DNA from: Escherichia coli
GTDB taxonomy: Bacteria; Pseudomonadota; Gammaproteobacteria; Enterobacterales; Enterobacteriaceae
DNA length: 64,000 nt
Reading direction: 5' to 3' (one strand)
NCBI RefSeq assembly: GCF_017348835.2
Contig: NZ_CP071375.1
Shown here: one piece after another, positions 1-28,880 of the stretch
How the letters are laid out: each line of letters begins with the position of its first letter
How positions within the stretch are numbered: the stretch's first letter is position 1
Made by a program: the position numbers and the translations under genes
Notes under the pieces: model-generated
Told to the model about the DNA's origin: nothing
Database searches by the model: none
The model's input: the letters and a program-made list of their open reading frames with translations, nothing else

Positions 1-1187
1 ATAAATGCAGCAATAAAACTATTGGTATATTGGACAATGAAGCCAGTTAAAATAGGGGCGATAATTCCCGAGGTGTTTGCCAGTAAATGTACAAAACCAC
101 CAACGCCACCGACTTTATCAGGGGAAATATTATCGGAGACAATTGCCCACGGCGCGGCAGCGGCGAGATACATAAAGAAGATACCCATTGCCATTAACAT
201 CACTGCATTTGTTACGGAGGCAACCTGACCCGCAAAACTGATACAAATAGCCGAGAGAATTAACCCTCCAACGATAATTAACTTTCTGGCCAGCAGCAGA
301 TTTTTGGTTTTGCGATATAACCAGTCTGAAAACATACCGCCAATAGCAATACCAACGCTACCAATAATCCACGGAATGGCCGAGGCAATACTCATCTCCT
401 GAATATTTAGTCCCTTTTCCATTGAGAGATAACTTGGAAACCAGGTTAAAAAGAAATACAGAATATAGTTAATAGAGAAGAATGCCAGGCCAGTGAACAG
501 AACTATAGGCTGGGTCAGGTAGAAGATAAAAGGCACTTTGGCTGAGTCAGTGCCGTAGCCTGGCGCGCCTTTTTGCGCCTCATCATACTCGGCAATTTCT
601 TCTTTCGATGTATGAGGGTTATTATGTGGACGATCGGTAAATGCTTTAATCCAGAAAAATGTCCAGATAAAACCCAGAGACATTAAAATGATAAAAGCGA
701 TGCGCCAGTTCCACATCACCACGATTGCGCCAACAATCGGACCCGCAATCGCACCACCCAAAGGGTTGCCCGCGTTTGCGATGCCCACAGCTCTGGCGCG
801 CTGATCAAGCGGAACCCAGTTACTAATGCATTTGTTGATCGTCGTACTAATCGGGCCTTCGCTCATCCCGAATAATACGCGCACGATAAACAAAGATATA
901 TAACCGAAAGCGAGGCCAGTCAGCCCACAGAACAATGACCAGGAAAGCATTGCAATGGCAAAAACTTTGCGGGGACCATAGAGATCGGATAAATAGCCAC
1001 CAACAAAGTTAAATAATGCATAACCAAAGAAAAAACTACTCAGCATAATCCCAACTTCGGCTGGGTTTAGGCCAAAATGATCTTTGATATAGGGCATTGC
1101 CACAGAAAATGCCGCACGATCGAGATAATTAATTATTCCAGCGATAAACAGCAGGAATAATATTTTGGAATGCTGTCGTTTGAACAT
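1..1187 (-). CDS. MFS transporter (anion:cation symporter-like), partial: N-terminus in window, C-terminus beyond left edge
   Basis: Minus-strand reading frame from ATG at 1187 to the window edge (~395 codons); translation is dominated by hydrophobic transmembrane-like segments with MFS-type motifs; not in the supplied ORF track because it lacks a stop in the window. Confidence 0.6.
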   Translation of the reverse strand, partial: MFKRQHSKILFLLFIAGIINYLDRAAFSVAMPYIKDHFGLNPAEVGIMLSSFFFGYALFNFVGGYLSDLYGPRKVFAIAMLSWSLFCGLTGLAFGYISLFIVRVLFGMSEGPISTTINKCISNWVPLDQRARAVGIANAGNPLGGAIAGPIVGAIVVMWNWRIAFIILMSLGFIWTFFWIKAFTDRPHNNPHTSKEEIAEYDEAQKGAPGYGTDSAKVPFIFYLTQPIVLFTGLAFFSINYILYFFLTWFPSYLSMEKGLNIQEMSIASAIPWIIGSVGIAIGGMFSDWLYRKTKNLLLARKLIIVGGLILSAICISFAGQVASVTNAVMLMAMGIFFMYLAAAAPWAIVSDNISPDKVGGVGGFVHLLANTSGIIAPILTGFIVQYTNSFIAAF

Positions 1188-1254
1188 AGCAAGTCCTGCA
1201 TAAATAATTTATGTGAATAGTGGTAGGGTAGAATTAATAATTTAAATATATGAT

Positions 1255-1941
1255 CTACATCACACCGAACTTTTCAAATACTTCCACGGTGCTCATGCCA
1301 TTTTTTATCGCCAGACGAACATCACTTTCGGTTGCGACTTTATTCAGTGCTTCAGCTATTACCTCCTTTTCAACTTCTTTTGGAATAACTAAAAGACCAT
1401 CGCAGTCGCCATAAATAATATCGCCGGGATTTATCACCACACCGCAAACTTCAACCGGGACGTTATAATCAATGACTTTTCCTCGCGGCCCCTGATCCTG
1501 AGCATAAGTACCATAACTAAATGTGGGGAAATTAATATCAAGAATTTCTTTAGAGTCCCGGACATAACCATCAAGAACAGCACCGGCGGCCTTAAGATGC
1601 ATAGCGCGAGTGGACATTAAACCGCCCCATAATGCGTAACGTAGCGAACTTCCTGTCGCAATATAAACATCGTTTTCTTTCAGCGAATCCAGCGCCTCAA
1701 ACATAATACCGAACGGTTTTTTACCAATTGCTGTATTCCCCGACGATGAGTGCAACTCATAAACATCGGCTTCAAGAACAGGCATAGCCCGCCCTGCGAG
1801 AACCATACTGGAGTGTAAAGGTTTCATTGAAGGAGAAACAAACTGATGCAAATATCCTTTGGTATCAAGAATATCGCCAACAACGGCAGTAAATAACTGC
1901 GTACGCATCAACTGAAAAAGTTCCTTGTCATTGTTCCACAT
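1255..1941 (-). CDS. RraA-family protein (HMG/CHA-aldolase / oxaloacetate decarboxylase-like)
   Basis: 228-aa ORF; C-terminal GDIIYGDCDGLLVIP motif typical of the RraA / dimethylmenaquinone methyltransferase-like fold; AGGA Shine-Dalgarno about 9 nt upstream of the ATG. Confidence 0.6.
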   Translation of the reverse strand: MWNNDKELFQLMRTQLFTAVVGDILDTKGYLHQFVSPSMKPLHSSMVLAGRAMPVLEADVYELHSSSGNTAIGKKPFGIMFEALDSLKENDVYIATGSSLRYALWGGLMSTRAMHLKAAGAVLDGYVRDSKEILDINFPTFSYGTYAQDQGPRGKVIDYNVPVEVCGVVINPGDIIYGDCDGLLVIPKEVEKEVIAEALNKVATESDVRLAIKNGMSTVEVFEKFGVM

Positions 1942-1992
1942 AATTAACGATCCTGAATTGTAGTGAGGAGGTGTGAACAGAGACTAGAGTAG

Positions 1993-2025
1993 AACCTATA
2001 AACCTGTCAAACAGGTTTATAGGTT
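1993..2025. promoter_or_regulatory. Perfect 15-bp inverted repeat (AACCTATAAACCTGT-caa-ACAGGTTTATAGGTT) in the divergent promoter region; candidate operator
   Basis: Read directly from sequence; contains a TGT-N3-ACA core of the kind bound by GntR/FadR-family regulators; lies between the divergent RraA-like/MFS genes and the GntR gene. Confidence 0.4.
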
Positions 2026-2239
2026 GAAGAGTGTAAACGATCGCACTCTGCGAGCCTCTTCACAATTTCAGCTATGGTTTACTGCGATCGCTTTTCAACC
2101 GGATGCGTCCTATCGCTGCTACGCCTTTTTCGGTAACATACGAACCAAAGGTAGGAGGGATTATCTGTAACGCTATGATTTTTAAGTTTTAGATAAGATA
2201 TGTTGCGGCTGAAACAGGTAATATCTGCTCGGTAAATTG

Positions 2240-2965
2240 ATGGCAAGAATGATGACAACGAAAATTCAGCTAGAAAGTAACACGCTCTCAGCCCAGGTAC
2301 GAGACTACATACTGTCGTTAATTGCGCGGCAAAAGTTAACCGTCGGGATGCCGGTGCCCAGTGAAATGCAACTTACCCAGGAACTTGGCGTCAGTAAGGG
2401 CGTTGTCCGTGAGGCCTATCGTTCACTTGCCGCCCTTGGAATACTCGAAACCAAAAGTGGTAAAGTGCCACGCATTAAAGCCTTTGATTCTAGCGTGTTG
2501 CAGGTCATTTTTTCCTTTGCGACGCTGACCGAGCAGGTCAGTTCTTCACAGATACTTGCCGCCAGACGTTGGCTGGAAGCCGGATGCGTACAAATGGCGG
2601 CGCTCAATGGAGATGAAGAGGATTTTGCTGCGCTGAAGCAAGAAATGTCGTTGATACGCGAAGAGTTTTCTGACACCGAGCGTTTCCTGGAACATGATTT
2701 AAATTTCCATTTGCTGTTATCGCAGGCATCTAAAAATCCTTTATTCAGCATTCTGTTGCAGGCTTTACACACCCAGTTAACCCACTCAATGCGAGCGGGT
2801 CTGGAAGCACAACGCAATAATCATGAATATGAGCGTGGGATAATTGCATTGCACCAACGTGTTTGTGACTGTGTTTGTAATCGCGATGCTGAAGGTGCGA
2901 TGAAAGCCATGGATGAGCATTTCAACCTCTCTTCTGATGCTTTAAACAATCAGTCTCCTCTTTAA
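2240..2965 (+). CDS. GntR-family transcriptional regulator (FadR/FCD subfamily)
   Basis: ORF 2237..2965; N-terminal winged-HTH-like segment (QLTQELGVSKGVVREAYRSLAALGILE) and helical C-terminal domain; start ambiguous among TTG 2237 and ATG 2240/2249/2252. Confidence 0.7.
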   Translation: MARMMTTKIQLESNTLSAQVRDYILSLIARQKLTVGMPVPSEMQLTQELGVSKGVVREAYRSLAALGILETKSGKVPRIKAFDSSVLQVIFSFATLTEQVSSSQILAARRWLEAGCVQMAALNGDEEDFAALKQEMSLIREEFSDTERFLEHDLNFHLLLSQASKNPLFSILLQALHTQLTHSMRAGLEAQRNNHEYERGIIALHQRVCDCVCNRDAEGAMKAMDEHFNLSSDALNNQSPL

Positions 2966-2989
2966 TTAAGCGATTCAGCACCTTATCTC

Positions 2990-3013
2990 AGGCACCTTCG
3001 GGTGCCTTTTTTG
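2990..3013 (+). terminator. Rho-independent terminator after the GntR gene
   Basis: Hairpin AGGCACC-ttcg-GGTGCCT followed by TTTTTT. Confidence 0.5.
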
Positions 3014-3213
3014 TACCCGAAACGCCCTTCATAAAGTGAATGTTTTTTATTTATATTGTTATCAATAAGTTATCAAGTATTTTTAATTAAAATGGAAATT
3101 GTTTTTGATTTTGCATTTTAAATGAGTAGTCTTAGTTGTGCTGAACGAAAAGCGCACAACGATCCTTCGTTCACAGTGGGGAAGTTTTCGGATCCATGAC
3201 GAGGAGCTGCACG

Positions 3214-4844: not shown

Positions 4845-6149
4845 ATGAAAACCCGTACACAACAAATTGAAGAATTACAGAAAGAGTGGACTCAACCGCG
4901 TTGGGAAGGCATTACTCGCCCATACAGCGCGGAAGATGTGGTGAAATTACGCGGTTCAGTCAATCCTGAATGCACGCTGGCGCAACTGGGCGCGGCGAAA
5001 ATGTGGCGTCTGCTGCATGGCGAGTCGAAAAAAGGCTACATCAACAGCCTCGGCGCACTGACTGGCGGTCAGGCGCTGCAACAGGCGAAAGCGGGTATTG
5101 AAGCAGTCTATCTGTCGGGATGGCAGGTAGCGGCGGACGCTAACCTGGCGGCCAGCATGTATCCGGATCAGTCGCTCTATCCGGCAAACTCGGTGCCAGC
5201 TGTGGTGGAGCGGATCAACAACACCTTCCGTCGTGCCGATCAGATCCAATGGTCCGCGGGCATTGAGCCGGGCGATCCGCGCTATGTCGATTACTTCCTG
5301 CCGATCGTTGCCGATGCGGAAGCCGGTTTTGGCGGTGTCCTGAATGCCTTTGAACTGATGAAAGCGATGATTGAAGCCGGTGCAGCGGCAGTTCACTTCG
5401 AAGATCAGCTGGCGTCAGTGAAGAAATGCGGTCACATGGGCGGCAAAGTTTTAGTGCCAACTCAGGAAGCTATTCAGAAACTGGTCGCGGCGCGTCTGGC
5501 AGCTGACGTGACGGGCGTTCCAACCCTGCTGGTTGCCCGTACCGATGCTGATGCGGCGGATCTGATCACCTCCGATTGCGACCCGTATGACAGCGAATTT
5601 ATTACCGGCGAGCGTACCAGTGAAGGCTTCTTCCGTACTCATGCGGGCATTGAGCAAGCGATCAGCCGTGGCCTGGCGTATGCGCCGTATGCTGACCTTG
5701 TATGGTGTGAAACTTCTACACCGGATCTGGAACTGGCGCGTCGCTTTGCACAAGCTATCCACGCGAAATATCCGGGCAAACTGCTGGCTTATAACTGCTC
5801 GCCGTCGTTCAACTGGCAGAAAAACCTCGACGACAAAACTATTGCCAGCTTCCAGCAGCAGCTGTCGGATATGGGCTACAAGTTCCAGTTCATCACCCTG
5901 GCAGGTATCCACAGCATGTGGTTCAACATGTTTGACCTGGCAAACGCCTATGCCCAGGGCGAGGGTATGAAGCACTACGTTGAGAAAGTGCAGCAGCCGG
6001 AATTTGCCGCCGCGAAAGATGGCTATACCTTCGTATCTCACCAGCAGGAAGTGGGTACAAGTTACTTCGATAAAGTGACGACTATTATTCAGGGCGGCAC
6101 GTCTTCAGTCACCGCGCTGACCGGCTCCACTGAAGAATCGCAGTTCTAA
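4845..6149 (+). CDS. aceA: Isocitrate lyase
   Basis: ORF 4830..6149; protein [15 protein letters not shown]... with the KKCGH active-site motif; trimmed to 434 aa. Confidence 0.95.
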
Positions 6150-6332: not shown

Positions 6333-10224
<3,892 letters not shown>

Positions 10225-11365: not shown

Positions 11366-11564
11366 GACAGTCTCCTTTTTCTGTATCGTGGAAATCATTT
11401 TCATTTTTATTGTTAGCTAATGCAATAGTTGCTGAACTGATCCGATGAGTTAATGTTGAACAAATCTCATGTTGCGTGGTGGTCGCTTTTACCACAGATG
11501 CGTTTATGCCAGTATGGTTTGTTGAATTTTTATTAAATCTGGGTTGAGCGTGTCGGGAGCAAGT

Positions 11565-15248
<3,684 letters not shown>

Positions 15249-15278
15249 TTCACAAATCTGTCACTTTTCCTTACAACA

Positions 15279-15313
15279 AACAGGGCGCTCAATGAGTGCC
15301 CTGTCTCTTTATT
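15279..15313 (+). terminator. Putative metH intrinsic terminator
   Basis: Imperfect hairpin ACAGGGCGCTCA-a-TGAGTGCCCTGT followed by a T-rich run. Confidence 0.45.
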
Positions 15314-15467
15314 AATATGAAACACTTATACTGGAATCAGGCTGGAATAATCTTAGCTGGAAAAACGAATGTTAAAAGGCACAGTAAAGATGCCAGTCAG
15401 CGTGTTTCCGGTCCTTTGGTCATTCAATTGCTTCAGGAACATATAACGATAAGGAGAACCTGAACTC

Positions 15468-17099
15468 GTGTTAACGCTGCTTCACCTGCTTTCTGCCGTC
15501 GCCCTGCTGGTCTGGGGGACTCATATTGTTCGAACCGGCGTAATGCGCGTCTTCGGCGCGCGTCTGCGTACTGTCCTTAGCCGGAGCGTCGAAAAAAAGC
15601 CGCTCGCCTTTTGCGCGGGGATCGGCGTTACCGCACTGGTACAGAGCAGTAATGCCACCACCATGCTGGTGACCTCGTTCGTCGCTCAGGATCTGGTAGC
15701 CCTCGCACCGGCTCTGGTGATTGTGCTGGGGGCAGATGTCGGGACGGCGCTAATGGCGCGTATTCTCACCTTCGACTTATCCTGGCTGTCACCGTTACTT
15801 ATTTTTATCGGCGTGATTTTTTTCCTCGGACGCAAACAGTCACGCGCCGGGCAACTGGGCCGCGTCGGTATTGGTCTTGGGCTGATTTTACTGGCGCTGG
15901 AGTTGATTGTGCAGGCCGTAACGCCGATCACCCAGGCAAACGGCGTTCAGGTGATCTTTGCCTCGCTGACCGGCGATATTCTGCTGGATGCGCTGATTGG
16001 CGCGATGTTCGCCATTATCAGCTACTCCAGCCTTGCTGCTGTACTGCTGACCGCGACTCTGACCGCCGCAGGCATTATCTCCTTCCCCGTGGCACTCTGT
16101 CTGGTGATTGGTGCTAACCTCGGTTCCGGCCTGCTGGCGATGCTCAACAACAGTGCCGCCAATGCCGCAGCCCGCCGTGTCGCGCTGGGTAGTCTGCTGT
16201 TTAAGCTGGTGGGTAGCCTGATTATCCTGCCGTTTGTCCATTTGCTGGCAGAGACAATGGGGAAGCTGTCATTGCCAAAAGCGGAACTGGTTATCTATTT
16301 CCACGTCTTCTACAACCTTGTACGTTGCCTGGTCATGCTGCCATTTGTTGACCCGATGGCACGGTTTTGCAAAACGATTATTCGCGATGAACCGGAACTG
16401 GATACCCAGCTACGGCCTAAACATCTGGATGTCAGCGCGCTGGATACACCCACGCTTGCTCTGGCGAACGCCGCGCGCGAAACCCTGCGCATTGGCGACG
16501 CCATGGAACAGATGATGGAAGGGCTGAATAAAGTGATGCACGGCGAGCCAAGGCAGGAGAAAGAGCTGCGTAAGCTGGCAGATGATATCAACGTTCTCTA
16601 TACCGCCATTAAGCTGTATCTGGCGCGGATGCCAAAAGAGGAACTGGCAGAAGAAGAGTCGCGCCGCTGGGCGGAGATCATCGAAATGTCGCTCAACCTT
16701 GAACAGGCCTCCGATATCGTCGAGCGCATGGGGAGCGAAATTGCCGACAAATCGCTGGCTGCAAGGCGAGCATTTTCGCTTGATGGCTTGAAGGAACTGG
16801 ATGCGCTCTATGAGCAATTGCTCAGTAATTTAAAGCTGGCAATGTCGGTGTTCTTCTCTGGTGATGTTACCAGCGCCCGTCGTTTGCGCCGCAGCAAGCA
16901 TCGCTTTCGCATTCTTAATCGCCGCTATTCCCACGCCCACGTCGATCGCCTGCATCAGCAAAACGTGCAGAGCATTGAAACCAGTTCGCTACATTTAGGC
17001 TTACTGGGAGATATGCAGCGTCTGAACTCGCTGTTTTGTTCGGTGGCTTACAGTGTGCTGGAACAGCCGGATGAAGATGAAGGACGGGACGAGTATTAA
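15468..17099 (+). CDS. yjbB: Na+/phosphate cotransporter family (PhoU-domain) inner membrane protein
   Basis: 543-aa ORF; multi-pass hydrophobic N-terminal half, soluble helical C-terminal half; position after metH. Confidence 0.85.
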   Translation: MLTLLHLLSAVALLVWGTHIVRTGVMRVFGARLRTVLSRSVEKKPLAFCAGIGVTALVQSSNATTMLVTSFVAQDLVALAPALVIVLGADVGTALMARILTFDLSWLSPLLIFIGVIFFLGRKQSRAGQLGRVGIGLGLILLALELIVQAVTPITQANGVQVIFASLTGDILLDALIGAMFAIISYSSLAAVLLTATLTAAGIISFPVALCLVIGANLGSGLLAMLNNSAANAAARRVALGSLLFKLVGSLIILPFVHLLAETMGKLSLPKAELVIYFHVFYNLVRCLVMLPFVDPMARFCKTIIRDEPELDTQLRPKHLDVSALDTPTLALANAARETLRIGDAMEQMMEGLNKVMHGEPRQEKELRKLADDINVLYTAIKLYLARMPKEELAEEESRRWAEIIEMSLNLEQASDIVERMGSEIADKSLAARRAFSLDGLKELDALYEQLLSNLKLAMSVFFSGDVTSARRLRRSKHRFRILNRRYSHAHVDRLHQQNVQSIETSSLHLGLLGDMQRLNSLFCSVAYSVLEQPDEDEGRDEY

Positions 17100-18258: not shown

Positions 18259-19488
18259 TTAATCATGGGAAATTGCCTCTGCATGAGTGAGCAGATATTG
18301 CTCCGCCTCACCGGACCAGATCCCCTGATGACGCGCCAGAATCGCCGCCAGTGCTTGATCCTGAATCTGCGTGAGTGACGTCAGCGGCAGGTATTTCTCG
18401 GTATACACCAGCTTTTTGCCGCCGCCGACGGCAGGCAATTCAAGCGTGGTTTCGCCCGCGGCATTCAGCCCAAGAATATGTGTTACCACTTTTGCGGCCT
18501 GCACTTTTTTCTCTTCGATCAGTTTGACCGCCGCGCGCATGTCGTCGGTATTGCCGCCTGACGTGCCCACGTAGTGGGTAAATGCATAATGCACATCGTA
18601 GAAATTAATTGGCGCGCTGAAATGTTTATCCTGCGGTCCGGCGAAGAAATTCAGGCAACCATCTGTCGCCAGCAAGGAAGAGGCGAGAGTCACCAGTCCT
18701 TCATTAGGCACAAAGACGAAAATATCATCGAAGCCGTGACCGCCACTCAGCGCCATTAGCGTATCAAATGCTGCATCGGTGGCATTGAGATAATGAATCA
18801 GTGTTTGCGGTTCTGATGGATAGTGCTTGCGCGCATAACTCAATTTATCGTTGTCGGTATCGGTAATGACGAGCAGCGACGGGTTAACGGGTCCATGTAG
18901 CGCATAATCAATCGCCAACAGTCCCATTGGTCCGGTGCCGCCGAGGATCAGCGTGCGCCCTTGCGGGCGAATCCCCATCGTGTGGTTATAACTACCTTCC
19001 TGAAGATGATAGTTGGCGTTGAACGCGCCAATCACGCAGGAAAGTGGTTCAACCAGCGAGCCTTCAAAATAGGTTTCGCCGTCGTATGCCAGCAGGCAAT
19101 CTTGTTCCATGACCTCGTTGGGAATAACCACATGCGTGGCTTCGCCGCCCACCCACGGGAAGGAGTAGCCGGGGCAGTCCGGGCGATCCGGCAATTGCAG
19201 GTTGGCCTGAATCACATAACGCTGACCCGGCTGGAATTTGTGCTGCCACTTTTTACCCACGGCCAGAATATCGCCGCAAAACTCGTGGCCGATGATGATT
19301 GGGTTGGTCGCCACATCGTCGGGTACTTTTTTATGGTTTTCACCCAGGTTGGCCTCTTTCCAGGAAGAGAGGCACAGGCTGTCAGTGACCACCGTCGCGA
19401 GGATTTCATCCTCCTGCATTTCAGGAAGGTCAAAGGTTTCCAGGCGTAAATCACGTTTACCATAAAGACGCAGAGCTGTTGTTTTCAT
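18259..19488 (-). CDS. sorE: L-sorbose-1-phosphate reductase (Zn-dependent MDR-family dehydrogenase)
   Basis: ORF 18259..19500 trimmed to MKTTALRLYGKRDLRLE...; medium-chain dehydrogenase fold; last gene of a sor-type operon. Confidence 0.8.
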   Translation of the reverse strand: MKTTALRLYGKRDLRLETFDLPEMQEDEILATVVTDSLCLSSWKEANLGENHKKVPDDVATNPIIIGHEFCGDILAVGKKWQHKFQPGQRYVIQANLQLPDRPDCPGYSFPWVGGEATHVVIPNEVMEQDCLLAYDGETYFEGSLVEPLSCVIGAFNANYHLQEGSYNHTMGIRPQGRTLILGGTGPMGLLAIDYALHGPVNPSLLVITDTDNDKLSYARKHYPSEPQTLIHYLNATDAAFDTLMALSGGHGFDDIFVFVPNEGLVTLASSLLATDGCLNFFAGPQDKHFSAPINFYDVHYAFTHYVGTSGGNTDDMRAAVKLIEEKKVQAAKVVTHILGLNAAGETTLELPAVGGGKKLVYTEKYLPLTSLTQIQDQALAAILARHQGIWSGEAEQYLLTHAEAISHD

Positions 19489-19539
19489 AAACCACCTCAT
19501 GTTGAGCGATGGCCCCGGCAGTCGTGCCGGGGCGAAGAA

Positions 19540-20364
19540 TCAGGACAGGAAGCCCAGCGCATTGCCGATAATCCCTAAGCCAAACAGGGCGAAAATCAGC
19601 CATACCGGGTTAATTTTTTTGTTGAGCAGACGAACCATTAGTAGCGTCAGACCGAGCGCCAGCAAACCAGGGCAAAGTTGGTCGAGAATGTTCTGCACGG
19701 TCATGATGACGGTGGAGCCATCGGCGGCATGCGTTTGTGAAACCACCAACGGTACGTTGATTGACGTCCATTTGGTGACCAGCACGCCCATCACAAACAG
19801 TCCGAGAATCGACGCGCCTTCGGTGAGTTTTTGCAGCAAATTACCGCCCATATCGCTGACGATATTCACCCCTTTGCGAAAGCCGAGCTGGAGGCCATAC
19901 CACTTCATCGCCAGACGCACCGCGTTGAAAATAAAGAAGAACAGCAGCGGGCCGAGAATGTTGCCCGAAAGTGCCAGAGATGCGCCGAGCGCGGCGGTAA
20001 TCGGGCGCAGCGTTCCCCAGACCAGTGGATCGCCAACCCCTGCCAATGGTCCCATCAGACCGACTTTGATGCCGTTAATGGTGCCGTCATCAATTTCCGC
20101 GCCGTTGGCCCGCGCCTCTTCCATGGCGGCAGTGACGCCGATGACCGGGCCACATACGGCTGGCGTGGTATTGAAGAACACCAGGTGTCGCCTGAGCGCC
20201 GCAACCTGATCCTCTTTTAATGGGTAAAGTCGCTTGATGGCGGGGATCATGTCGTAGCAAAAGCCCAGCCCGTGAATACGTTCAAAGTTAAAGGACGCCT
20301 GTTGCAGGTTGGAGCGCAGAAACATGCTCACCAGATCGCTGCGTGTAATTTTTCTCTGTTCCAT
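19540..20364 (-). CDS. sorM: PTS sorbose/mannose-family EIID component
   Basis: ORF 19540..20394; EIID-like membrane protein; likely start MEQRKITRSDL... giving about 274 aa. Confidence 0.8.
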   Translation of the reverse strand: MEQRKITRSDLVSMFLRSNLQQASFNFERIHGLGFCYDMIPAIKRLYPLKEDQVAALRRHLVFFNTTPAVCGPVIGVTAAMEEARANGAEIDDGTINGIKVGLMGPLAGVGDPLVWGTLRPITAALGASLALSGNILGPLLFFFIFNAVRLAMKWYGLQLGFRKGVNIVSDMGGNLLQKLTEGASILGLFVMGVLVTKWTSINVPLVVSQTHAADGSTVIMTVQNILDQLCPGLLALGLTLLMVRLLNKKINPVWLIFALFGLGIIGNALGFLS

Positions 20365-20374
20365 GATGGCTCCG

Positions 20375-21172
20375 TTAATCGTCAAGTTGGTCAAGGGCGG
20401 TGGAAGCGGGGGCCTGGAGCTGAGGTTCAGCTTTACGCCACTGTGGATTTAACTGGATGTAGACCAGGGCCATGATCACGCCGACGCCACCGAACGCCAG
20501 CAGACTGAGATCGAGGTAGCCACCTGCGAGGAAACCGAGGAAAAAGAAAGGCATCAAATATTTCACGCCCATCATACGTAGCACCATGGCGTAACCGACC
20601 ACCACGATAAAACCGCCAGCAATCTGTAGTCCTCGGGTCACAAATTCGGGAATGGCGTTTAACATATTGCTCACCATATCGGCGCTGACGAACAGCGAGA
20701 CAATCAGTGCCGGAACAGCAACGCGCAGCGCCTGCACGCCAAGCGCGGAGACATGCAGAATATCGAGAGTGCGAAACCGTGCTTCTTCCGCTGCTTTATC
20801 CGCCGCGTGCTGGAACACTACGGTGATGGTACGTGCAAACACCGTCAGCACCTGGCCTGCCGCAGCCACAGGCAACGCGATGGCGATTCCGGTGGCGATG
20901 CTTTGCTGACCAACGATAACCAGAATGGCGGAGATTATGCTGGCGAGTGCAGAATCCGGAGATTGCGCCGCGCCGACGTTCATCCAGCCGAGAGCTATCA
21001 ATTCCAGCGTACCACCGAGTATTATTCCGGTTTTTAAATCACCGAGAATTAAACCAATCACCGTACAGGCAATTAACGGGCGATGAGTCTGGAATTCATC
21101 CAGCACGCTGCCCATTCCGGCAATACAGGAAAAAAGAAATATAGCAATAATTTGTAGGGTACTTATTTCCAT
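20375..21172 (-). CDS. sorA: PTS sorbose/mannose-family EIIC component
   Basis: 265-aa hydrophobic ORF with EIIC-like sequence (MEISTLQIIAIFLFSCIAGMGSVLDEFQ...). Confidence 0.8.
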   Translation of the reverse strand: MEISTLQIIAIFLFSCIAGMGSVLDEFQTHRPLIACTVIGLILGDLKTGIILGGTLELIALGWMNVGAAQSPDSALASIISAILVIVGQQSIATGIAIALPVAAAGQVLTVFARTITVVFQHAADKAAEEARFRTLDILHVSALGVQALRVAVPALIVSLFVSADMVSNMLNAIPEFVTRGLQIAGGFIVVVGYAMVLRMMGVKYLMPFFFLGFLAGGYLDLSLLAFGGVGVIMALVYIQLNPQWRKAEPQLQAPASTALDQLDD

Positions 21173-21237
21173 GATTTGTCACCTTTTAAGTGTCGTCATC
21201 CCTGCCTGTTAAAGCATATGTACACAGGCGCTATTAT

Positions 21238-21732
21238 TTAATTTGCGATTAACTGTTCGTTTATTTTGTCGATAATATTGATTGAGGGATCTGACGCTAC
21301 GACGCGTAAATCCAGTATGACGCCAAGATTATTTAACTCATGAAATGCGTTAATATCATCATCATCTAATGAAACCGCTTTGGTTAACTGTTTTTTACCG
21401 GGCCGCCAGGCCATGCCGCCAATATTCAGGGTGCCTATTTTTACCCCCTGGCGAACCATCGCTAAGGCATCCTGTGGGCGAGTGAAAAGATAAAAAACGG
21501 TTTCGTCCTGATATTGCGGGTTGTGATAAACCGCGACGGCTTTTTCAATATTGACCACGTTAACCTTCATTCCCGGTGGCGCAGCCTGACGCAATAATGT
21601 CCGGCGAACTTCATCGTTATAAACTTCGTCATTGCAGATAATAATGCGCTGGGCGTTAGCCACTTTCGACCAGACGGTAGTGACCTGACCGTGGATCAGG
21701 CGGTCATCAATGCGGGCGAGCGTAATGTTCAT
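21238..21732 (-). CDS. sorB: PTS sorbose/mannose-family EIIB component
   Basis: 164-aa ORF MNITLARIDDRLIHGQVTTVW... (conserved IIB His motif). Confidence 0.85.
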   Translation of the reverse strand: MNITLARIDDRLIHGQVTTVWSKVANAQRIIICNDEVYNDEVRRTLLRQAAPPGMKVNVVNIEKAVAVYHNPQYQDETVFYLFTRPQDALAMVRQGVKIGTLNIGGMAWRPGKKQLTKAVSLDDDDINAFHELNNLGVILDLRVVASDPSINIIDKINEQLIAN

Positions 21733-22139
21733 CAGAAATCCTCCTCTGCCGTTGCCACCTGTCTCCAGACGACGCAGGATTGCTTTGCGATTTGCGTCAG
21801 GTGTTCACACAGTTCATCAACATTCATGCTGTCCTGGTTATCAACCAGTTCGAGCGCCAGCGGCAGAGAAAGGCCGCTGATTACCCGCAAACGAGGATTG
21901 CGCATCGCAAGCATCGCTGCCGCATTCCACGGGCTGCCGCACTGTAAATCCACGGCAATCAGCCACTCATCTTGATTGTGAATGCTTACTAACTTTTCCA
22001 GCTTTACCACAATGTCTCCGGCGTTTTCACCGGGCACAAATTCAACGGCTTCAACATTGGCGTTGCCGTAAACCATCTGAACCGATTCCAGCATGGCGCA
22101 AGCTAATTTGCCGTGGGCACAAAAAATGGCGTTGACCAT
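21732..22139 (-). CDS. sorF: PTS sorbose/mannose-family EIIA component
   Basis: 135-aa ORF MVNAIFCAHGKLA...; start of sorB overlaps its stop (ATGA), indicating translational coupling. Confidence 0.85.
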   Translation of the reverse strand: MVNAIFCAHGKLACAMLESVQMVYGNANVEAVEFVPGENAGDIVVKLEKLVSIHNQDEWLIAVDLQCGSPWNAAAMLAMRNPRLRVISGLSLPLALELVDNQDSMNVDELCEHLTQIAKQSCVVWRQVATAEEDF

Positions 22140-22148
22140 AAAGCCTCC

Positions 22149-22955
22149 TTATCCGCGCGTTTTGCCGCCCGCAATGTTAGTGGTTACTCCGGTGATGTAG
22201 CTGGCGCGTTCAGACAACAGATAACAAACAAAATCAGCGACTTCTGCTAATCTACCGGCGCGCCCAATAGGAATGGCGTTTTTGGTATAGCCTTCACGCA
22301 GCTGCTCGACGGTGATATTGCGCGTCCACGCCAGCGCTTCTTCATATTCCGGCGTGCGCAGTCCTGTTTTTTCCAGAATCCCCGGCGCGATACCGACCAC
22401 ACGGATACCGTGTTTACCCAATTCTTTCGACCAGGAGCGCGTGAAGCTATTGAGCGCGGCTTTGGTAGCGGCGTAACAGCTTTGTCCTTCTGAGCCTTCC
22501 AGCCCACTTTCTGAGGAAACATTCACAATCACGCCATCATGTTGTTTGACCATCTGTCGCGCCACCGCCTGCGACATCAGAAAAACACCTTTCTGGTTGA
22601 TATTGACCATTTTTTCGAATGCAGCTTCGTTGAGTTCATACTGCCCGGCAGGCGCTTTCTCATCGACCAGCAGACGCGGGAAATTGACCCCGGCGTTATT
22701 GACCAGACCGTCGATGCGACCAAAACGCTGGATAATTTCCGCTACCGTATGATTTACCTCTTTGGCGCTGGAAATATCGGTCGGCCAAAACTGATAGCCT
22801 TTATGACCTTCATATTGTCCATCGCCACCGTGAATATCGACCATCTGTACATTCGCGCCTTGTGCTAATAATTCCTCTACAATCGCCAGACCAATACCGG
22901 ATGCGCCGCCGGTGACGATAATGATTTTATCCTGCAAATTTAACCACGTTTGCAT
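22149..22955 (-). CDS. sorD: Sorbitol-6-phosphate 2-dehydrogenase (short-chain dehydrogenase/reductase)
   Basis: 268-aa ORF with TGGASGIG Rossmann motif and SDR catalytic YxxxK (YAATKAAL). Confidence 0.8.
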   Translation of the reverse strand: MQTWLNLQDKIIIVTGGASGIGLAIVEELLAQGANVQMVDIHGGDGQYEGHKGYQFWPTDISSAKEVNHTVAEIIQRFGRIDGLVNNAGVNFPRLLVDEKAPAGQYELNEAAFEKMVNINQKGVFLMSQAVARQMVKQHDGVIVNVSSESGLEGSEGQSCYAATKAALNSFTRSWSKELGKHGIRVVGIAPGILEKTGLRTPEYEEALAWTRNITVEQLREGYTKNAIPIGRAGRLAEVADFVCYLLSERASYITGVTTNIAGGKTRG

Positions 22956-23024
22956 AACAGACTCCTGATTTTAGATAATAGGGACCCGCCGTAATTTTTA
23001 TTACGATAAACATCGGGAAGATTT

Positions 23025-23972
23025 TTATTTCAGTAATAGTTCAGCTGTGCTGCTATTCGTTACCAGACAATTAATATATTTTCCACGCAGTGCACCAATA
23101 ATTCCGCTGTATTTTTCTTCACTCATGGCAATGCCAATGGAATATCGTGCCTGCTTTAATTTATTCATTTCGATAGAGAGTGTTTTTTCGCTCATATTCG
23201 TTTCAACCATTGCGCCGTGAATATCAAAAAAGCGCGAGCAAATATCGCCAGCAACCTGGCGGGCATTCAGGTCGTCACTCTCTTCACCACCATAAAACGC
23301 ATGCCAGTTAGCGCCGTCGCGAATGGCCGGTGAGCCAATTCCCACCAGGGCGACATCCAGATTATCCCAGTAGGCAGAGATGGTTTTAAAGTGCTGAGAC
23401 TGCATGATCCCATTACGAATTAAGGGGTTATCCAGCAGAGCCGGAAAATCCGCGAGATGCGATTCCCCTTTCAGCTTCGCTGCCGCGCTGTAGGTTAATG
23501 TGTTTACGTGATAGCGGCTTTCGAGTTTACCGGACGGTCCGCCAATAATTGGCACGCAGATTAACTGCCGCGATTGCCCCGCTTGCGGCAAGTTTTCAAC
23601 CAGTGCGCTCACCGCGCGACCCCAGGAAAAACCGACAATATCGCCAGGCTCCAGCAAGCGATCCAGCAGTTGCGCGCCGTGTAACCCCATCATCGCCAGT
23701 TGAGTCTCTTCATCCTCATCATTTCCCGACACCACCACAACGTCTTTCAGGCCAAACTTTTGCTTCAGTTGCTGCTCGAGCCAGAGATTTTCGTTGTAGT
23801 CATAGTTGATGGCGATGGTGACAATTCCCTGATCGCGGCCTCGTTTAAGCAAGCGGCTGATGGTGGTGCGGTAAATACCCAGTTCGCGCGCGATTTGCGC
23901 CTGCGTCATATCCTGTTCGTAATAGAGTTGGGCAATCTTCACAATCAAACGGATATCGTCACTGTTTTCCAT
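23025..23972 (-). CDS. sorC: SorC-family transcriptional regulator of the sorbose operon
   Basis: ORF 23025..24056 trimmed to MENSDDIRLIVKIAQLYYEQDMTQAQIARELG... (HTH plus sugar-binding domain, about 315 aa). Confidence 0.8.
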   Translation of the reverse strand: MENSDDIRLIVKIAQLYYEQDMTQAQIARELGIYRTTISRLLKRGRDQGIVTIAINYDYNENLWLEQQLKQKFGLKDVVVVSGNDEDEETQLAMMGLHGAQLLDRLLEPGDIVGFSWGRAVSALVENLPQAGQSRQLICVPIIGGPSGKLESRYHVNTLTYSAAAKLKGESHLADFPALLDNPLIRNGIMQSQHFKTISAYWDNLDVALVGIGSPAIRDGANWHAFYGGEESDDLNARQVAGDICSRFFDIHGAMVETNMSEKTLSIEMNKLKQARYSIGIAMSEEKYSGIIGALRGKYINCLVTNSSTAELLLK

Positions 23973-25465: not shown

Positions 25466-25993
25466 GATGGTGCCCTCAGTGAGCCAGAGAGTTCAGTGTA
25501 CGGGAATTCGTTTGCGAGCAGAACTGATAATATTCCTTTGTTCTCTTCTTAAATATTTATCTTTCTTGATAATTGACGATAAATACAGATACAAATTTAG
25601 CGAAAAAATCTCCCCCTACAAACAACAATGATTTATTAAATCTTTATTTTTCATGTAATTAAAATTTTTTATCACTTCTGGCACGCTTCTCGCAATAACA
25701 CTTTTGCGTTGATACTGAATTACAAAGGGGGTTAAACCCCGTCGGCACACCAGGAACGGCCAGGCTGTTTTCCGGGCGTGTTCCGTCAGCCTTTGACGCC
25801 AATTACGGGTTCGATTCCCACATTCATTCCTGAAATGAATACTGGTTGTAACTTATTAAATAAAAAATGAGGGATTGCGCAGTCTGCGGTCCCCGATAAC
25901 GTCACCGATAAAGATGCCGGGTAACAGGCAAAAGGGAATTCCCCTGTCGCTTCGTGTCTGCTTCCGCGACGGCTATTAAGCAAGGAATAGATA

Positions 25994-27121
25994 ATGATTA
26001 AAAAAATAAGCGTAAGAAAAGATCAGCTGGCATTACTCTCCAGAAACGGCGATTACTACAAAGTGCTGCATGCAGGCGAGCATATTTTACCCTGGTTAAA
26101 TACCCCGGAAGTGTTGCTGATTACGCTGGATGGTAGCGAAGTTCCCGACGTGCTTGCGGATTATTTGCGCCGCTTTCAGCCTGATTGGGTGGAGAAATAT
26201 TGCCTGGTGGCAGACTTGTCGGAGACTGAAGCCGGGGTGTTGTATATGGACGGTATTTTGTTGGAGATCCTGCCGCCATCAACGCGTCGTTTGTACTGGC
26301 GTGTAGAGGATGATTTGACGCTGGTGCGGATGAATACGCAGCAAGTCCCGGTACAAACGGAGGTGATGAATGCGGTATTACAGCCACGGCGCAAAGGAGT
26401 TGTTAAAGGCCGCGATGCGATACTGACGGTGCAGGTTCCGGCCTGGCATGTAGGCGTGCTGAAAATCGATGGTGAAACGCAGGCGCTGTTACCGCCGGGG
26501 CTGACTGCGTACTGGAAAATAAATCATCTGGTTGAAGCTGAAGTTGTCGACACCCGCTTGCAGGTACTGGAAGTCAGCGGGCAAGAAATCTTAACGAAAG
26601 ATAAGGTCAATCTGCGGATTAATCTCGCCGCTAACTGGCGCTATAGCGATGTGTTGCTGGCATTTAGTCAGCTAACGAAGCCGATTGATCATTTGTATCG
26701 GGAATTACAATTTGCCCTGCGTGAAGCGGTAGGTACGCGCACACTGGATGAACTGCTGGAAGATAAACAGGTCATTGATGACGTTGTTAGCGAGCAGGTG
26801 AAACTACGCATGAAGCCGTTCGGTATGGAGATCGCTTCGTTAGGAGTAAAAGATATCGTCCTGCCTGGCGATATGAAAAATATTCTTGCGCAACTGGTAG
26901 AGGCGGAGAAATCCGCGCAGGCCAATGTGATTCGCCGACGTGAAGAAACGGCAGCGACGCGCTCGTTACTGAACACCGCCAAAGTCATGGAGAACAATCC
27001 GGTAGCGTTGCGTTTAAAAGAGCTGGAAACGCTGGAGAGAGTGGCTGAGCGGATTGATAACATCTCTGTATTTGGCGGTCTGGATCAGGTTCTGCATGGG
27101 TTGGTTAATATCAAAGGGTGA
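25994..27121 (+). CDS. Soluble SPFH/band-7 (stomatin/prohibitin-like) domain protein with a novel ~170-aa N-terminal domain
   Basis: 375-aa ORF; C-terminal half has SPFH-like features (VSGQEILTKDKVNLRINLAANWRY...AEKSAQANVIRRREETAATRSL); no evident N-terminal transmembrane segment; AAGGA Shine-Dalgarno before the ATG. Confidence 0.7.
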   Translation: MIKKISVRKDQLALLSRNGDYYKVLHAGEHILPWLNTPEVLLITLDGSEVPDVLADYLRRFQPDWVEKYCLVADLSETEAGVLYMDGILLEILPPSTRRLYWRVEDDLTLVRMNTQQVPVQTEVMNAVLQPRRKGVVKGRDAILTVQVPAWHVGVLKIDGETQALLPPGLTAYWKINHLVEAEVVDTRLQVLEVSGQEILTKDKVNLRINLAANWRYSDVLLAFSQLTKPIDHLYRELQFALREAVGTRTLDELLEDKQVIDDVVSEQVKLRMKPFGMEIASLGVKDIVLPGDMKNILAQLVEAEKSAQANVIRRREETAATRSLLNTAKVMENNPVALRLKELETLERVAERIDNISVFGGLDQVLHGLVNIKG

Positions 27122-27918
27122 GTAACATGCCATTAAATGGAGTCAGTGCTGCGATGCGCGAAAGGGTATCGCAGCAGTTAAAAGAAATTGAACGTCGCTA
27201 TGGCGTGAAAGTGCTGTACGCCTGCGAATCGGGGAGTCGCGGCTGGGGATTTGCTTCGCCCGACAGCGATTACGATGTGCGGTTTTTGTATGTCCATCCG
27301 CTGGAATGGTATCTGCGGGTAGAGGCACCACGCGATGTTATCGAACTGCCCATCGACGACGAGTTAGATGTTTCCGGTTGGGAATGGCGCAAAGCGCTGG
27401 GATTGCTGAAAGGTGCGAATCCCACGCTAATTGAATGGCTGGATTCACCGGTGGTCTATCAGCAAGATGAAGAGACGATAACGGCGCTTAAGGCAATGGT
27501 CCCAACGTGGTTTTCTCCGTTGCGTGCGCGCTGGCATTACTATTCGATGGCGCAGAAAAACTTCCGCGGATATTTGCAGGGCGATGAAGTTCGACTGAAA
27601 AAATACTTTTACGTGCTGCGTCCGTTGCTGGCCGTGCGTTGGGTTGAAGCGGGAAAAGGCGTACCGCCAATGCGTTTTTCCGAATTGCTGGCGGGAAGTG
27701 AGTTGGATGCGGCCTTACGCGCAGAAATAGATGAATTACTGGAACGTAAACAGCGTGCGGGTGAAGCGGAATATGGCCCACGCCGTCCATTGCTACATGC
27801 GTTTATCCATGCGGAACTGGCGCGTGGGGAAATTCCGCCTGTGTTACCGGATAGTAGAGAAGGGGACGTTAAGAAACTGGATAGCTTACTGTACCAGACG
27901 GTAATGCGCCGGGCGTGA
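27118..27918 (+). CDS. Pol-beta-superfamily nucleotidyltransferase
   Basis: 266-aa ORF; ESGSRGWGFASPDSDYDVRF fits the hG[GS]x9-13DxD nucleotidyltransferase signature; GTG start at 27118 overlaps the upstream stop (GTGA), alternative ATG at 27127 with AGGGTG Shine-Dalgarno. Confidence 0.7.
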   Translation: MSNMPLNGVSAAMRERVSQQLKEIERRYGVKVLYACESGSRGWGFASPDSDYDVRFLYVHPLEWYLRVEAPRDVIELPIDDELDVSGWEWRKALGLLKGANPTLIEWLDSPVVYQQDEETITALKAMVPTWFSPLRARWHYYSMAQKNFRGYLQGDEVRLKKYFYVLRPLLAVRWVEAGKGVPPMRFSELLAGSELDAALRAEIDELLERKQRAGEAEYGPRRPLLHAFIHAELARGEIPPVLPDSREGDVKKLDSLLYQTVMRRA

Positions 27919-27933
27919 TGCCCGGCGTTATTT
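27906..27933 (+). terminator. Intrinsic terminator after the nucleotidyltransferase gene
   Basis: Hairpin CGCCGGGC-gtgat-GCCCGGCG overlapping the stop codon, followed by TTATTT. Confidence 0.5.
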
Positions 27934-27950
27934 CAGGTCATCAGCTTTTA

Positions 27951-28880
27951 TTATTCTTGTGCACTTCCGCTGATTTCATTTTGTATATGCGTTGCAATAT
28001 CGCAATTGGTTGCCGCTTGTGAACTAAATATCATCTTCTCACGCGAATACACCGCAAACTTATCTGCCAGGTTTGAAGCAAACACCTTGCTGGCATTTTC
28101 TGCTAGCAAATCGGTAACGATATCATGGTGATTTTTATCCACTTTGCGGGCGATATTTCCCGCCTCTTTGTCCTTATTATACCCTTCGTTGGTGCTTTCC
28201 CAGCTTAATGCCGCTGAGGTGGTTTTTATCATGACTTCTGTTCGGTAGCCTGCATCTTTGAGTTTTTTTAATGTTTGTAGCGGCGTAGCGGCATTACGAA
28301 ATGTTCCTTCGACAACAATATTGAGTTTATTGGCTATGGCCCTCTCTATTGCACGTTCGACCGTTTCGCCGGAAAATTTTGCCGTATGGGTAACAAAATC
28401 GTCGCCATAAGTTTGATATATATAATTAAAATCAGGGTGTAGAAATCTGAAATCATCACCATTAATAATCATTATATTATTCTTTGTTTCCCTTTTTGCT
28501 AATTCGATTAGGGCGGATTTTCCGGCTCCTGGTTGTCCACCTAAAACAAAACCAATGGGACTCTGCTGGGATGTGACGTCATGGTTTGTCAGACGCTGCC
28601 AAATAGAATCAAAAGACGCTTTATTTTCTGAATGCGCAGTATTATTAAATTCACGCTGATACTTTTTTCTGACCTGCTGGAGGCGTAACTTTCCCTGTGT
28701 AAAATCAACAAGTTCTGCTGGAGTGGAATAAAGATTGTCGCGATAGCTGACTAATTGTGATAGCTCATCGTCTGAGTCCTGAACTTGTGAGGAAAAACAA
28801 CTGTCGACGATATTTGATAAAAACGCGATGCACTGACTGGTGCCGTTTAAAAGTGCATCTTTTTCCATTAAAGTAGCCAT
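27951..28880 (-). CDS. ezeT: Single-chain zeta-toxin family protein (EzeT-like UDP-GlcNAc kinase toxin with N-terminal cis-antitoxin domain)
   Basis: ORF 27951..28886; Walker A GGQPGAGKS placed ~110 residues from the N-terminus (long N-terminal extension); zeta-toxin-like C-terminal region; likely ATG at 28880 preceded by AGGAG; AT-rich. Confidence 0.7.
   Translation of the reverse strand: MATLMEKDALLNGTSQCIAFLSNIVDSCFSSQVQDSDDELSQLVSYRDNLYSTPAELVDFTQGKLRLQQVRKKYQREFNNTAHSENKASFDSIWQRLTNHDVTSQQSPIGFVLGGQPGAGKSALIELAKRETKNNIMIINGDDFRFLHPDFNYIYQTYGDDFVTHTAKFSGETVERAIERAIANKLNIVVEGTFRNAATPLQTLKKLKDAGYRTEVMIKTTSAALSWESTNEGYNKDKEAGNIARKVDKNHHDIVTDLLAENASKVFASNLADKFAVYSREKMIFSSQAATNCDIATHIQNEISGSAQE

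Follow-up and report, generated by a model that had tools for sequence, protein, structure and literature searches.

What does an Escherichia coli genome gain from a block of seven genes inserted between metA and aceB, and what is the role of the RraA-like protein encoded by the first gene of the inserted operon? The locus was found in a 64,000-nucleotide stretch of the E. coli contig NZ_CP071375.1 (assembly GCF_017348835.2; hereafter the window), which begins inside this block. We find that the operon is a rare, horizontally shared unit between metA and aceB. It is a recognisable kind of sugar-acid operon. What is new is the RraA-like protein, which belongs to an uncharacterised enzyme subfamily in the position of the cleavage enzyme and for which metal-dependent, pyruvate-forming lyase chemistry is our best guess from the sequence.

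A rare seven-gene insert between metA and aceB

The preliminary description of the window reported a GntR-type regulator gene on the plus strand, a divergent RraA-like gene and, behind the latter, a major facilitator superfamily (MFS) transporter gene that runs off the left edge. All three are present as described. The regulator gene occupies 2240-2965 (RefSeq start at 2240, with an alternative TTG start at 2237), the RraA-like gene 1255-1941 on the minus strand, and the transporter gene 1-1187 on the minus strand, with 395 of its 432 codons in the window. Also correct was the K-12 order given there, in which metA is followed by aceB (268 bp apart in MG1655), and with it the proposal that the genes are accessory, as they are absent from the metA-aceB site in K-12. 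The suggestion of a small, regulated uptake-and-cleavage module stands as regards a regulated sugar-acid catabolic unit and fails as regards its size. Extension to the left, which the description had proposed, adds four operon genes beyond the window edge in the annotated record of strain PE164, and window 1-2965 shows less than half of a seven-gene, 6.5-kb unit.

E. coli PE164 (NZ_CP114128.1) and F2_81 (NZ_CP043542.1), both pig isolates, match the window with 100% identity, and they are the only two of 5,426 complete E. coli genomes that carry the stretch. For the other 5,423 matching genomes, similarity starts at window position 2966, directly after the stop codon of the GntR gene. Based on pairwise BLAST against K-12 and on the PE164 annotation, the insert comprises 6,487 bp and seven genes: the divergent GntR regulator and then, in operon order, the RraA-like protein, the MFS transporter, a zinc-dependent alcohol dehydrogenase (Zn-ADH), a short-chain dehydrogenase/reductase (SDR), and the small and large subunits of a dehydratase. 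RefSeq gives these genes generic names only.

The insert starts 2 bp past the metA stop codon, ends with the stop codon of the regulator gene (window 2965) and takes the place of 18 bp in K-12. Sequence shared with K-12 resumes at 2966 and contains an intrinsic terminator (2990-3013, plus strand; a 7-bp stem with five G-C pairs, followed by a T-run) that stands after metA in K-12 and after the GntR gene here; aceB starts at 3214. Both junctions are clean: one adjoins the metA stop codon, the other the terminator that follows metA in K-12. No integrase, insertion sequence element, tRNA integration site or flanking direct repeats are annotated within the insert or at its junctions. The GC content of the insert is slightly low (0.479), with values of 0.43-0.44 for the MFS and RraA-like genes and 0.50-0.53 for neighbouring genes. 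The flanks on the metA and aceBA sides share 97.1-97.7% identity with K-12. The segment upstream of aceB that is common to other E. coli (window 2966-3200) is only 93-94.5% identical to nearly all of the 5,423 matching genomes, so that the insert may lie in a recombined segment, or the strain may come from a divergent lineage.

The RraA-like protein has the features of a metal-dependent enzyme

The 228-amino-acid RraA-like protein had been taken for an enzyme rather than a canonical RNase E inhibitor, with the HMG/CHA aldolases named among its possible relatives. Classification with profile hidden Markov models, as proposed at the time, upholds the first of these claims by score, and length, motif and fold agree. 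The protein matches the RraA family in Pfam (PF03737, E = 1.5e-32) and reaches 49.6 bits with the RraA equivalog NF006875, for which the cut-off is 136. It is 228 amino acids long, compared with 161 for E. coli RraA, and residues 188-225 form C-terminal helices in an AlphaFold2 model with a predicted local distance difference test score of 89.6. In Foldseek searches the closest folds are 5ir2, 3k4i, 3noj (an HMG/CHA aldolase) and yeast Yer010c, with query-normalised template modelling (TM) scores of 0.65-0.80, compared with about 0.53 for canonical RraA structures; the Foldseek probability is 1.00 for 5ir2, 3k4i, 3noj and 2c5q. A canonical RraA was therefore rejected on the grounds of score, length, motif and context. 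Of note, the closest solved structure, 5ir2 (29% identity, TM 0.80), was entered in the PDB as a gut-metagenome 'novel cellulase', a label that looks doubtful given its fold and the conserved lyase motif region.

The second claim is not supported as a matter of family membership. The LigK/PcmE equivalogs are far from reached (TIGR02798, 72.5 of the 304.5 bits required; NF006731, 76.8 of 179 bits), identity to enzymes of the HMG/CHA aldolase, TtRraA and Yer010Cp type is 22-27%, and the genomic context is one of sugar acids, not of aromatic meta-cleavage.

The metal site nevertheless follows a lyase pattern. In the definition attributed to Mazurkewich et al. (2014), the aldolase reportedly carries a D-X20-R-D motif and the catalytically active TtRraA and Yer010Cp proteins a G-X20-R-D-X2-E/D motif, and E. 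coli RraA is said to be without the metal-site motifs. The window protein has G107-X20-R128-D129-S-K-E132, which fits the lyase definition; in E. coli RraA the R-D pair is replaced by R-Q. In the aldolase 3noj, R123-D124 align with R128-D129 and Asp102 aligns with Gly107. Across 35 members of the subfamily R128 and D129 are invariant; 30 combine G107 with E132 and the remaining five E107 with G132, a perfect reciprocal swap. Such a movement of the carboxylate between two alternative motif positions is what a functional metal site would predict. We infer that the protein is a putative divalent-metal-dependent, pyruvate-forming C-C lyase.

Among characterised enzymes, FlDet of Flavobacterium, a 2-keto-3-deoxy-glucarate dehydratase/decarboxylase activated by divalent metal (PMC8563752), is 29% identical over 215 residues and has Asp where the window protein has Gly107. 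Orthology to FlDet was rejected, as FlDet's described homologues share 63-80% identity. In a separate observation, the RraA-like protein also matches positions 339-475 of NF009399 (PRK12764), a 501-amino-acid model of the fumarylacetoacetate hydrolase (FAH) family. Fused FAH/RraA-like proteins may therefore exist, linking two families able to perform the same cleavage step.

The subfamily accompanies enzymes that make 2-keto-3-deoxy-hexonates

The distribution of the subfamily was examined by scoring 8,000 candidate proteins, of which 7,780 matched at E <= 1e-20. Homologues at least 58% identical are abundant in Enterobacterales, Vibrio, Rhizobiales, Rhodobacterales, Burkholderiales and many Bacteroidota. 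The protein is 58-69% identical across phyla and is always embedded in catabolic operons. Open reading frames were called and clustered in 72 non-redundant loci, and the 53 with at least 6 kb on both sides were used for counts. In 45 of the 53, an enzyme that yields a 2-keto-3-deoxy-hexonate is encoded no more than 8 kb from the RraA-like gene. These enzymes are UxuA-like (24 loci), UxaA-like (12), canonical UxuA (5) and KduI (5). An SDR occurs within 8 kb in 42 of the 53 loci, which makes the RraA-like protein and an SDR the most constant pair.

The arrangements differ between lineages. Bacteroidota loci combine genes for LacI, glycoside hydrolase family 38 (GH38), a sugar porter, a 140-amino-acid protein, the RraA-like protein, an SDR, a lactonase and a UxuA-like dehydratase. 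Other loci place an AraC regulator beside RraA-like, UxaC, SDR, Nramp and UxuA-like genes, or have glycoside hydrolase family 88 (GH88), KduI and KduD genes on one side of AraC and DUF4861 and RraA-like genes on the other. Rhizobiales loci have a canonical UxuA gene directly before the RraA-like gene, together with a sugar ABC transporter and a single SDR. In Pedobacter, the RraA-like gene is followed by an SDR, a split UxaA and a GH28 galacturonidase-like gene. Where there is a single SDR it mostly has an upstream job, as a sugar 1-dehydrogenase or a keto-uronate reductase. Direct action of the RraA-like protein on the keto-deoxy acid is thus the most economical reading.

Two further features of the Bacteroidota loci were recorded. 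The 140-amino-acid neighbour is cupin-like, and ten of the loci also encode a CaiB-type CoA-transferase, an enoyl-CoA hydratase and a 383-amino-acid protein. The CoA-transferase and enoyl-CoA hydratase hint at further, CoA-dependent processing of the three-carbon product.

Related islands differ in transporter and site

A sister island with a tripartite ATP-independent periplasmic (TRAP) transporter is found between gltA and abrB in about 661 of the 5,426 E. coli genomes (~12%). Its regulator and five enzyme-coding genes have the same order as in the window island and their proteins are 61-80% identical, with a TRAP DctPQM transporter at the end of the operon instead of the MFS transporter. 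E. albertii and E. whittamii also carry the TRAP version. Serratia (between ubiG and nrdA), Sodalis and one further enterobacterial lineage carry the MFS version with its gene order unchanged; the last of these has an extra gene of the enolase superfamily resembling acid-sugar dehydratases. TRAP versions 46-75% identical are present in a betaproteobacterium, where the dehydratase is a single fused protein, and in a Phyllobacteriaceae genome. Because Serratia and other genera carry the module at different sites, we conclude that it moves as a cassette.

A 2026 paper on the avian pathogenic E. coli strain BEN2908 (PMC12928451) describes the sister island as 'GR 21', in silico only; it likens the Zn-ADH to YjjN/LgoD and leaves the RraA-like gene unmentioned. 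The searchable literature yielded no experimental study of either island or of the RraA-like subfamily and no mention of six RefSeq protein accessions of the sister island, and a search for RraA with UxaA, fucose or keto-deoxy acids returned only the FlDet paper.

The remaining enzymes and the transporter resemble sugar-acid proteins

The proposal of an organic-anion MFS transporter is borne out by its best NCBIfam match, the 'D-galactonate transporter' subfamily of anion:cation symporters (TIGR00893). The whole model is covered, at 333.1 bits with a cut-off of 395. The full-length gene lies at 14889-16187 of the fetched PE164 locus, and its product is 30% identical to LgoT. The Zn-ADH is 35% identical to LgoD over 300 residues and 46-50% identical to the Zn-ADHs of Brucella and Phyllobacteriaceae loci with a TRAP system of the Oant_3902 type. 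For the SDR, sub-threshold NCBIfam matches include models for gluconate 5-dehydrogenase and KduD, and the PDB matches also include gluconate 5-dehydrogenases. The L-2-keto-3-deoxyfuconate (L-KDF) 4-dehydrogenase 8XWK is absent from its best 60 PDB matches and the type-2 relative 4DQX stands in the middle of that list. An L-KDF 4-dehydrogenase was accordingly set aside as an assignment for the SDR, with no specific similarity found.

The dehydratase subunits have 103 (small) and 395 (large) amino acids. Their genes overlap by one base and lie at 12704-13015 and 11517-12704, respectively, of the fetched PE164 locus. The end of the small subunit aligns with residue 107 of E. coli UxaA and the start of the large subunit with residue 108. 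Together they constitute a heteromeric form of the UxaA/GarD superfamily, with a SAF-type small subunit and a GD_AH large subunit that align end to end with fused enzymes. Orthologues carry Pfam GD_AH_second and GD_AH_C records. Galactarate dehydratase (TIGR03248) is the only curated model matched by the subunits, at 167.6 bits with a cut-off of 730.85, and GarD (6u7l) is their only solved relative. Among seven sequences aligned with E. coli UxaA, the large subunit shows three invariant cysteines (C25, C79 and C146) and a fourth, C297, in six; they are possible counterparts of the four conserved dehydratase cysteines that are reported missing in SuyAB (PMC6336799).

A conserved palindrome is the likely operator

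The regulator has a GntR domain (PF00392, residues 17-75) and an FCD domain (PF07729, residues 104-229), which confirms its earlier assignment to the FadR subfamily. Its full-length NCBIfam matches, to NanR, LldR, GlcC and PdhR, are all sub-threshold. Between its gene and the operon lies a divergent control region of 298 bp (1942-2239), in which a repeat search identified a perfect 15+3+15 palindrome, AACCTATAAACCTGT-caa-ACAGGTTTATAGGTT, at 1993-2025. The core, CCTGTNNNACAGG, occurs once in the 64-kb window (0 expected). Every one of the 11 enterobacterial island loci, whichever transporter type it has, carries the core upstream of its RraA-like gene, and only two other matches occur in 1.6 Mb of fetched loci. 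When the intergenic regions are aligned across genera, the palindrome block is the only conserved block. Since all 11 loci conserve the core, the palindrome is likely to be the operator of the GntR/FCD regulator, and it fits the TGT-N3-ACA-type operator core of the FadR subfamily near a regulated promoter.

By our own reading, the minus strand at the centre of the palindrome contains TTGACA (2010 to 2005), which matches the -35 hexamer perfectly and is oriented towards the RraA-like gene; the best -10 candidate for it is weak. With TTGACA inside the operator, a bound repressor would be expected to occlude the promoter.

Two other matches are of interest. Sodalis sp. dw_96 has a second extended operator motif, AACCTGTAATCCTGTCAAACAGGTTGTGAGGTT, at position 4904 of its fetched locus, about 5 kb upstream of the island operator, and the same regulator may control another operon there. 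One of the two off-target matches to the core is in K-12, where CCTGTCCGACAGG lies directly downstream of exuR, the hexuronate regulator gene (position 9434 of the fetched locus). It is probably just a terminator hairpin.

Substrate class and proposed pathway

The binding protein of the sister island is 68% identical to PDB 4ovt (Oant_3902) and 43% identical to 4o8m (Actinobacillus succinogenes, EFI-510004). Brucella carries a 90% identical orthologue of Oant_3902. Its neighbours are a GntR/FCD regulator, a Zn-ADH, a fused UxaA of the canonical type and a reductase like UxaB, and the locus has neither an SDR nor an RraA-like gene. The Zn-ADH always accompanies the Oant_3902-type binding protein, and from the comparison of the Brucella and Phyllobacteriaceae loci we conclude that transporter and Zn-ADH make up a conserved front end. 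The two steps that follow appear to be supplied either by UxaB and UxaA or by the SDR and a distinct UxaA-like dehydratase, which points to displacement of the same steps. A TRAP system with dual specificity for L-fuconate and L-galactonate, at a different locus, is attributed to Vetting et al. (2015) where that work is cited.

Such a sequence of steps agrees with the established course of L-galactonate catabolism: oxidation to D-tagaturonate by LgoD, reduction to D-altronate by UxaB and dehydration to 2-keto-3-deoxygluconate (KDG) by UxaA. The catabolism of L-gulonate and L-idonate follows the same logic. The data establish the gene content, the accessory status and exact limits of the insert, the conservation of module and operator, the metal-site motif and the association with dehydratase genes; the substrate, the succession of steps and each enzyme's reaction are inferred. 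Taking sequence, structure prediction and gene neighbourhood together, we regard it as an evenly balanced proposition that the seven genes form a 6.5-kb accessory operon for a six-carbon sugar acid, with an L-hexonate of the L-galactonate/L-fuconate (6-deoxy-L-galactonate) class as the most likely substrate.

On this proposition the GntR/FCD repressor would bind the palindrome at 1993-2025 over the TTGACA -35 hexamer and be released by the substrate or an intermediate. The MFS symporter would import the acid, as the TRAP system would do in the sister island. The Zn-ADH would oxidise the C5 hydroxyl to give a 5-keto acid (D-tagaturonate if the substrate is L-galactonate), and the SDR would reduce the keto group with the opposite stereochemistry to a D-altronate-type acid. 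The two-subunit UxaA-type dehydratase would convert this to a 2-keto-3-deoxy-hexonate (KDG or its 6-deoxy form). Finally the RraA-like enzyme, with a bound divalent metal, would cleave C3-C4 to yield pyruvate and a three-carbon aldehyde, without prior phosphorylation. Because the operon also encodes the Zn-ADH, the SDR and the two-subunit dehydratase, the RraA-like enzyme is most likely the last of four enzymatic steps.

A broader proposal, which we put forward tentatively and with rather less than even confidence, is that the RraA-like proteins are a large unrecognised family of metal-dependent, non-phosphorylative 2-keto-3-deoxy-hexonate lyases (aldolases or acylpyruvate-type hydrolases) that carry out the terminal step of sugar and sugar-acid pathways in many Proteobacteria and Bacteroidota. 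In Escherichia they would serve acids that KdgK and Eda cannot process, such as the 6-deoxy product expected from L-fuconate.

Several observations weigh against the proposed pathway. None of the island enzymes reaches the cut-off of a curated NCBIfam equivalog, and eight of the 53 loci, mainly from Burkholderiales and Vibrio, have no recognised dehydratase nearby. The E. coli host already has lgoTRD, uxaB and uxaA, so the island would be redundant for L-galactonate. Direct dehydration of L-fuconate is a live alternative for the dehydratase step, as a heteromeric UxaA-type L-fuconate dehydratase has been reported. The Brucella locus runs without an RraA-like gene, so cleavage by such an enzyme is dispensable. 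L-fuconate and L-galactonate are only presumed to be the ligands of 4ovt and 4o8m, and papers mentioning the locus tags do not name them. A sigma-70 promoter scan, at its thresholds, found no site in the intergenic region. To our knowledge, cleavage of KDG-type acids has not been demonstrated for any RraA-fold enzyme. FlDet was tested on KDG and did not use it (PMC8563752).

If the proposed lyase function is true, proteins annotated as 'RraA family protein' or 'regulator of RNase E activity' gain an enzymatic role at the end of sugar-acid pathways, and this role extends to loci for pectin, hexuronates and mannosides in marine and gut Bacteroidota. It would also explain an accessory metabolic trait of E. 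coli, present as the TRAP version in ~12% of complete genomes and very rare as the MFS version, for which oxidation products of host- or diet-derived L-fucose or L-galactose are candidate substrates. With its conserved operator and single regulator, the system is easily tested and could potentially be used as an inducible switch. If the proposal fails, the island is still an ordinary accessory sugar-acid operon.

Alternative assignments of the RraA-like protein

The alternative that survives best, although we consider it unlikely, is a pathway of the Route III type. The UxaA-type enzyme would convert L-fuconate to L-2-keto-3-deoxyfuconate, the SDR would oxidise C4 to give a 2,4-diketo acid, and the RraA-like protein would replace the FAH-family hydrolase FucG in releasing pyruvate and L-lactate; the Zn-ADH would then serve a parallel L-galactonate branch through host UxaB, UxaA, KdgK and Eda. 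A metal-stabilised pyruvate enolate is an intermediate both in acylpyruvate hydrolysis and in oxaloacetate decarboxylation, which speaks for such a replacement, and the FAH/RraA-like fusion model PRK12764 points the same way. So does the constancy of the RraA-like/SDR pair (42 of 53 loci), as does the occurrence of the RraA-SDR-UxaA trio without a Zn-ADH. The galactonate branch could be finished in Uliginosibacterium, where canonical UxaA, UxaB-like and PfkB-family (KdgK-like) kinase genes adjoin the module. The SDR is the difficulty. It is not close to L-KDF 4-dehydrogenase by its PDB matches (8XWK and 4DQX, above), and the UxaC-type, GH38-type and Rhizobiales UxuA-type loci have one SDR, which is needed upstream, with none left to act as a 4-dehydrogenase. 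Furthermore, we know of no RraA-fold hydrolase. From the literature, this pathway is favoured by the heteromeric UxaA/GarD-type L-fuconate dehydratase from P. mimosarum (Watanabe et al.) and by published combined L-fuconate/L-galactonate loci with lgoD, uxaA, uxaB, an SDR, an FAH hydrolase and a TRAP transporter.

An aldarate or uronate route of the FlDet type is improbable. Here the UxaA-like enzyme would act as GarD, and the RraA-like protein would dehydrate and decarboxylate a keto-deoxy-hexarate to alpha-ketoglutarate semialdehyde. FlDet is an RraA-fold enzyme with exactly that activity, and GarD is both the only curated model and the only solved relative of the dehydratase subunits. Against it, FlDet is just 29% identical, with Asp rather than Gly107 at the first motif position; the versions of the module examined contain no aldehyde dehydrogenase, and none for alpha-ketoglutarate semialdehyde lies in or beside any of them; and the subfamily partners UxuA, UxuA-like and KduI/KduD make KDG, not keto-deoxy-hexarate.

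It is very improbable that the RraA-like protein is a regulator, binding RNase E or an RNA helicase like E. coli RraA or acting as another non-catalytic partner. The fold and Pfam family that it has in common with RraA are set against the equivalog score (49.6 versus 136 bits), the length (228 versus 161 amino acids, with an enzyme-like helical C-terminal extension), the retention of R-D in place of R-Q with compensatory movement of the carboxylate between metal-site positions, and 58-69% identity across phyla in loci that are always catabolic operons.

Scarcely credible is a sulfolactate or sulfonate pathway, in which the UxaA-type pair would be a SuyAB-like sulfo-lyase and the dehydrogenases would interconvert stereoisomers of sulfolactate or dihydroxypropanesulfonate: SuyAB is the classic heteromeric member of the superfamily, which is why it was considered for a split dehydratase, and the set of GntR, MFS, Zn-ADH and SDR genes recalls hps/suy clusters, but the large subunit keeps three invariant cysteines and a fourth in common with E. 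coli UxaA and fused homologues (possible counterparts of those reported missing in SuyAB, see above), fused orthologues exist, and the relatives of the binding protein and all other contexts concern sugar acids, pectin or hexuronates.

Other accessory genes in the window

The window contains a second accessory carbohydrate cluster, an L-sorbose-type phosphotransferase system (PTS) operon between rluF and pepE (18259-23972), with genes for a sugar-binding regulator, an SDR, mannose-family PTS components IIA, IIB, IIC and IID, and sorE. Beside lysC (about 25990-28880) are genes of the zeta toxin family, the DNA polymerase beta superfamily (nucleotidyltransferase) and the slipin family, a trio that could be of toxin-antitoxin or defence type. 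Between aceK and iclR is an effector gene annotated as EspL4 (8038-10224), and between ubiC and malM is a gene of the SopA family (about 47766-49346), which by its RefSeq name would belong to a type III effector-like E3 ligase family.

Comparison with known systems

A close functional parallel is the L-galactonate system of K-12, made up of lgoT-lgoR-lgoD with uxaB and uxaA. Like the island, it has an anion-symporter MFS transporter, a GntR-type regulator, zinc-dependent oxidation of an L-hexonate at C5, a keto-acid reductase and a UxaA-family dehydratase leading to KDG. The proteins are only distantly similar (Zn-ADH 35%, MFS 30% and dehydratase about 30% identical). In contrast to the K-12 system, the island has an SDR instead of UxaB of the mannitol dehydrogenase family, a split dehydratase, all steps in a single operon at a different locus, and the added RraA-like gene.

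With the HMG/CHA aldolases/oxaloacetate decarboxylases (LigK, PcmE and 3noj of P. putida), TtRraA and Yer010Cp, the RraA-like protein has in common the fold, the R-D dyad, a carboxylate at one of two alternative motif positions, the length and the C-terminal helices. Its genomic setting belongs to sugar-acid catabolism and not to the cleavage of protocatechuate or gallate. FlDet of Flavobacterium sp. UMI-01, of similar length, stands alone among RraA-fold enzymes in having a demonstrated activity on a keto-deoxy sugar acid (PMC8563752); it is partnered by an alpha-ketoglutarate semialdehyde dehydrogenase, which the island does not have.

The non-phosphorylative routes for L-fucose and L-fuconate (FucC, followed by the aldolase FucH or by the SDR FucF and the FAH hydrolase FucG) resemble the island in combining an acid-sugar dehydratase with cleavage to pyruvate and a three-carbon product. 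The island differs from them in having neither a DHDPS/NAL-type aldolase nor an FAH hydrolase, in its extra Zn-ADH, and in an SDR that is not of the L-KDF dehydrogenase type. The sister island, GR 21, matches the window island in gene order, protein sequence (61-80% identity) and operator core. The two differ in the transporter, which is a TRAP system at the end of the operon in the sister island and an MFS protein after the first gene here, and in their sites, and the sister island is far commoner.

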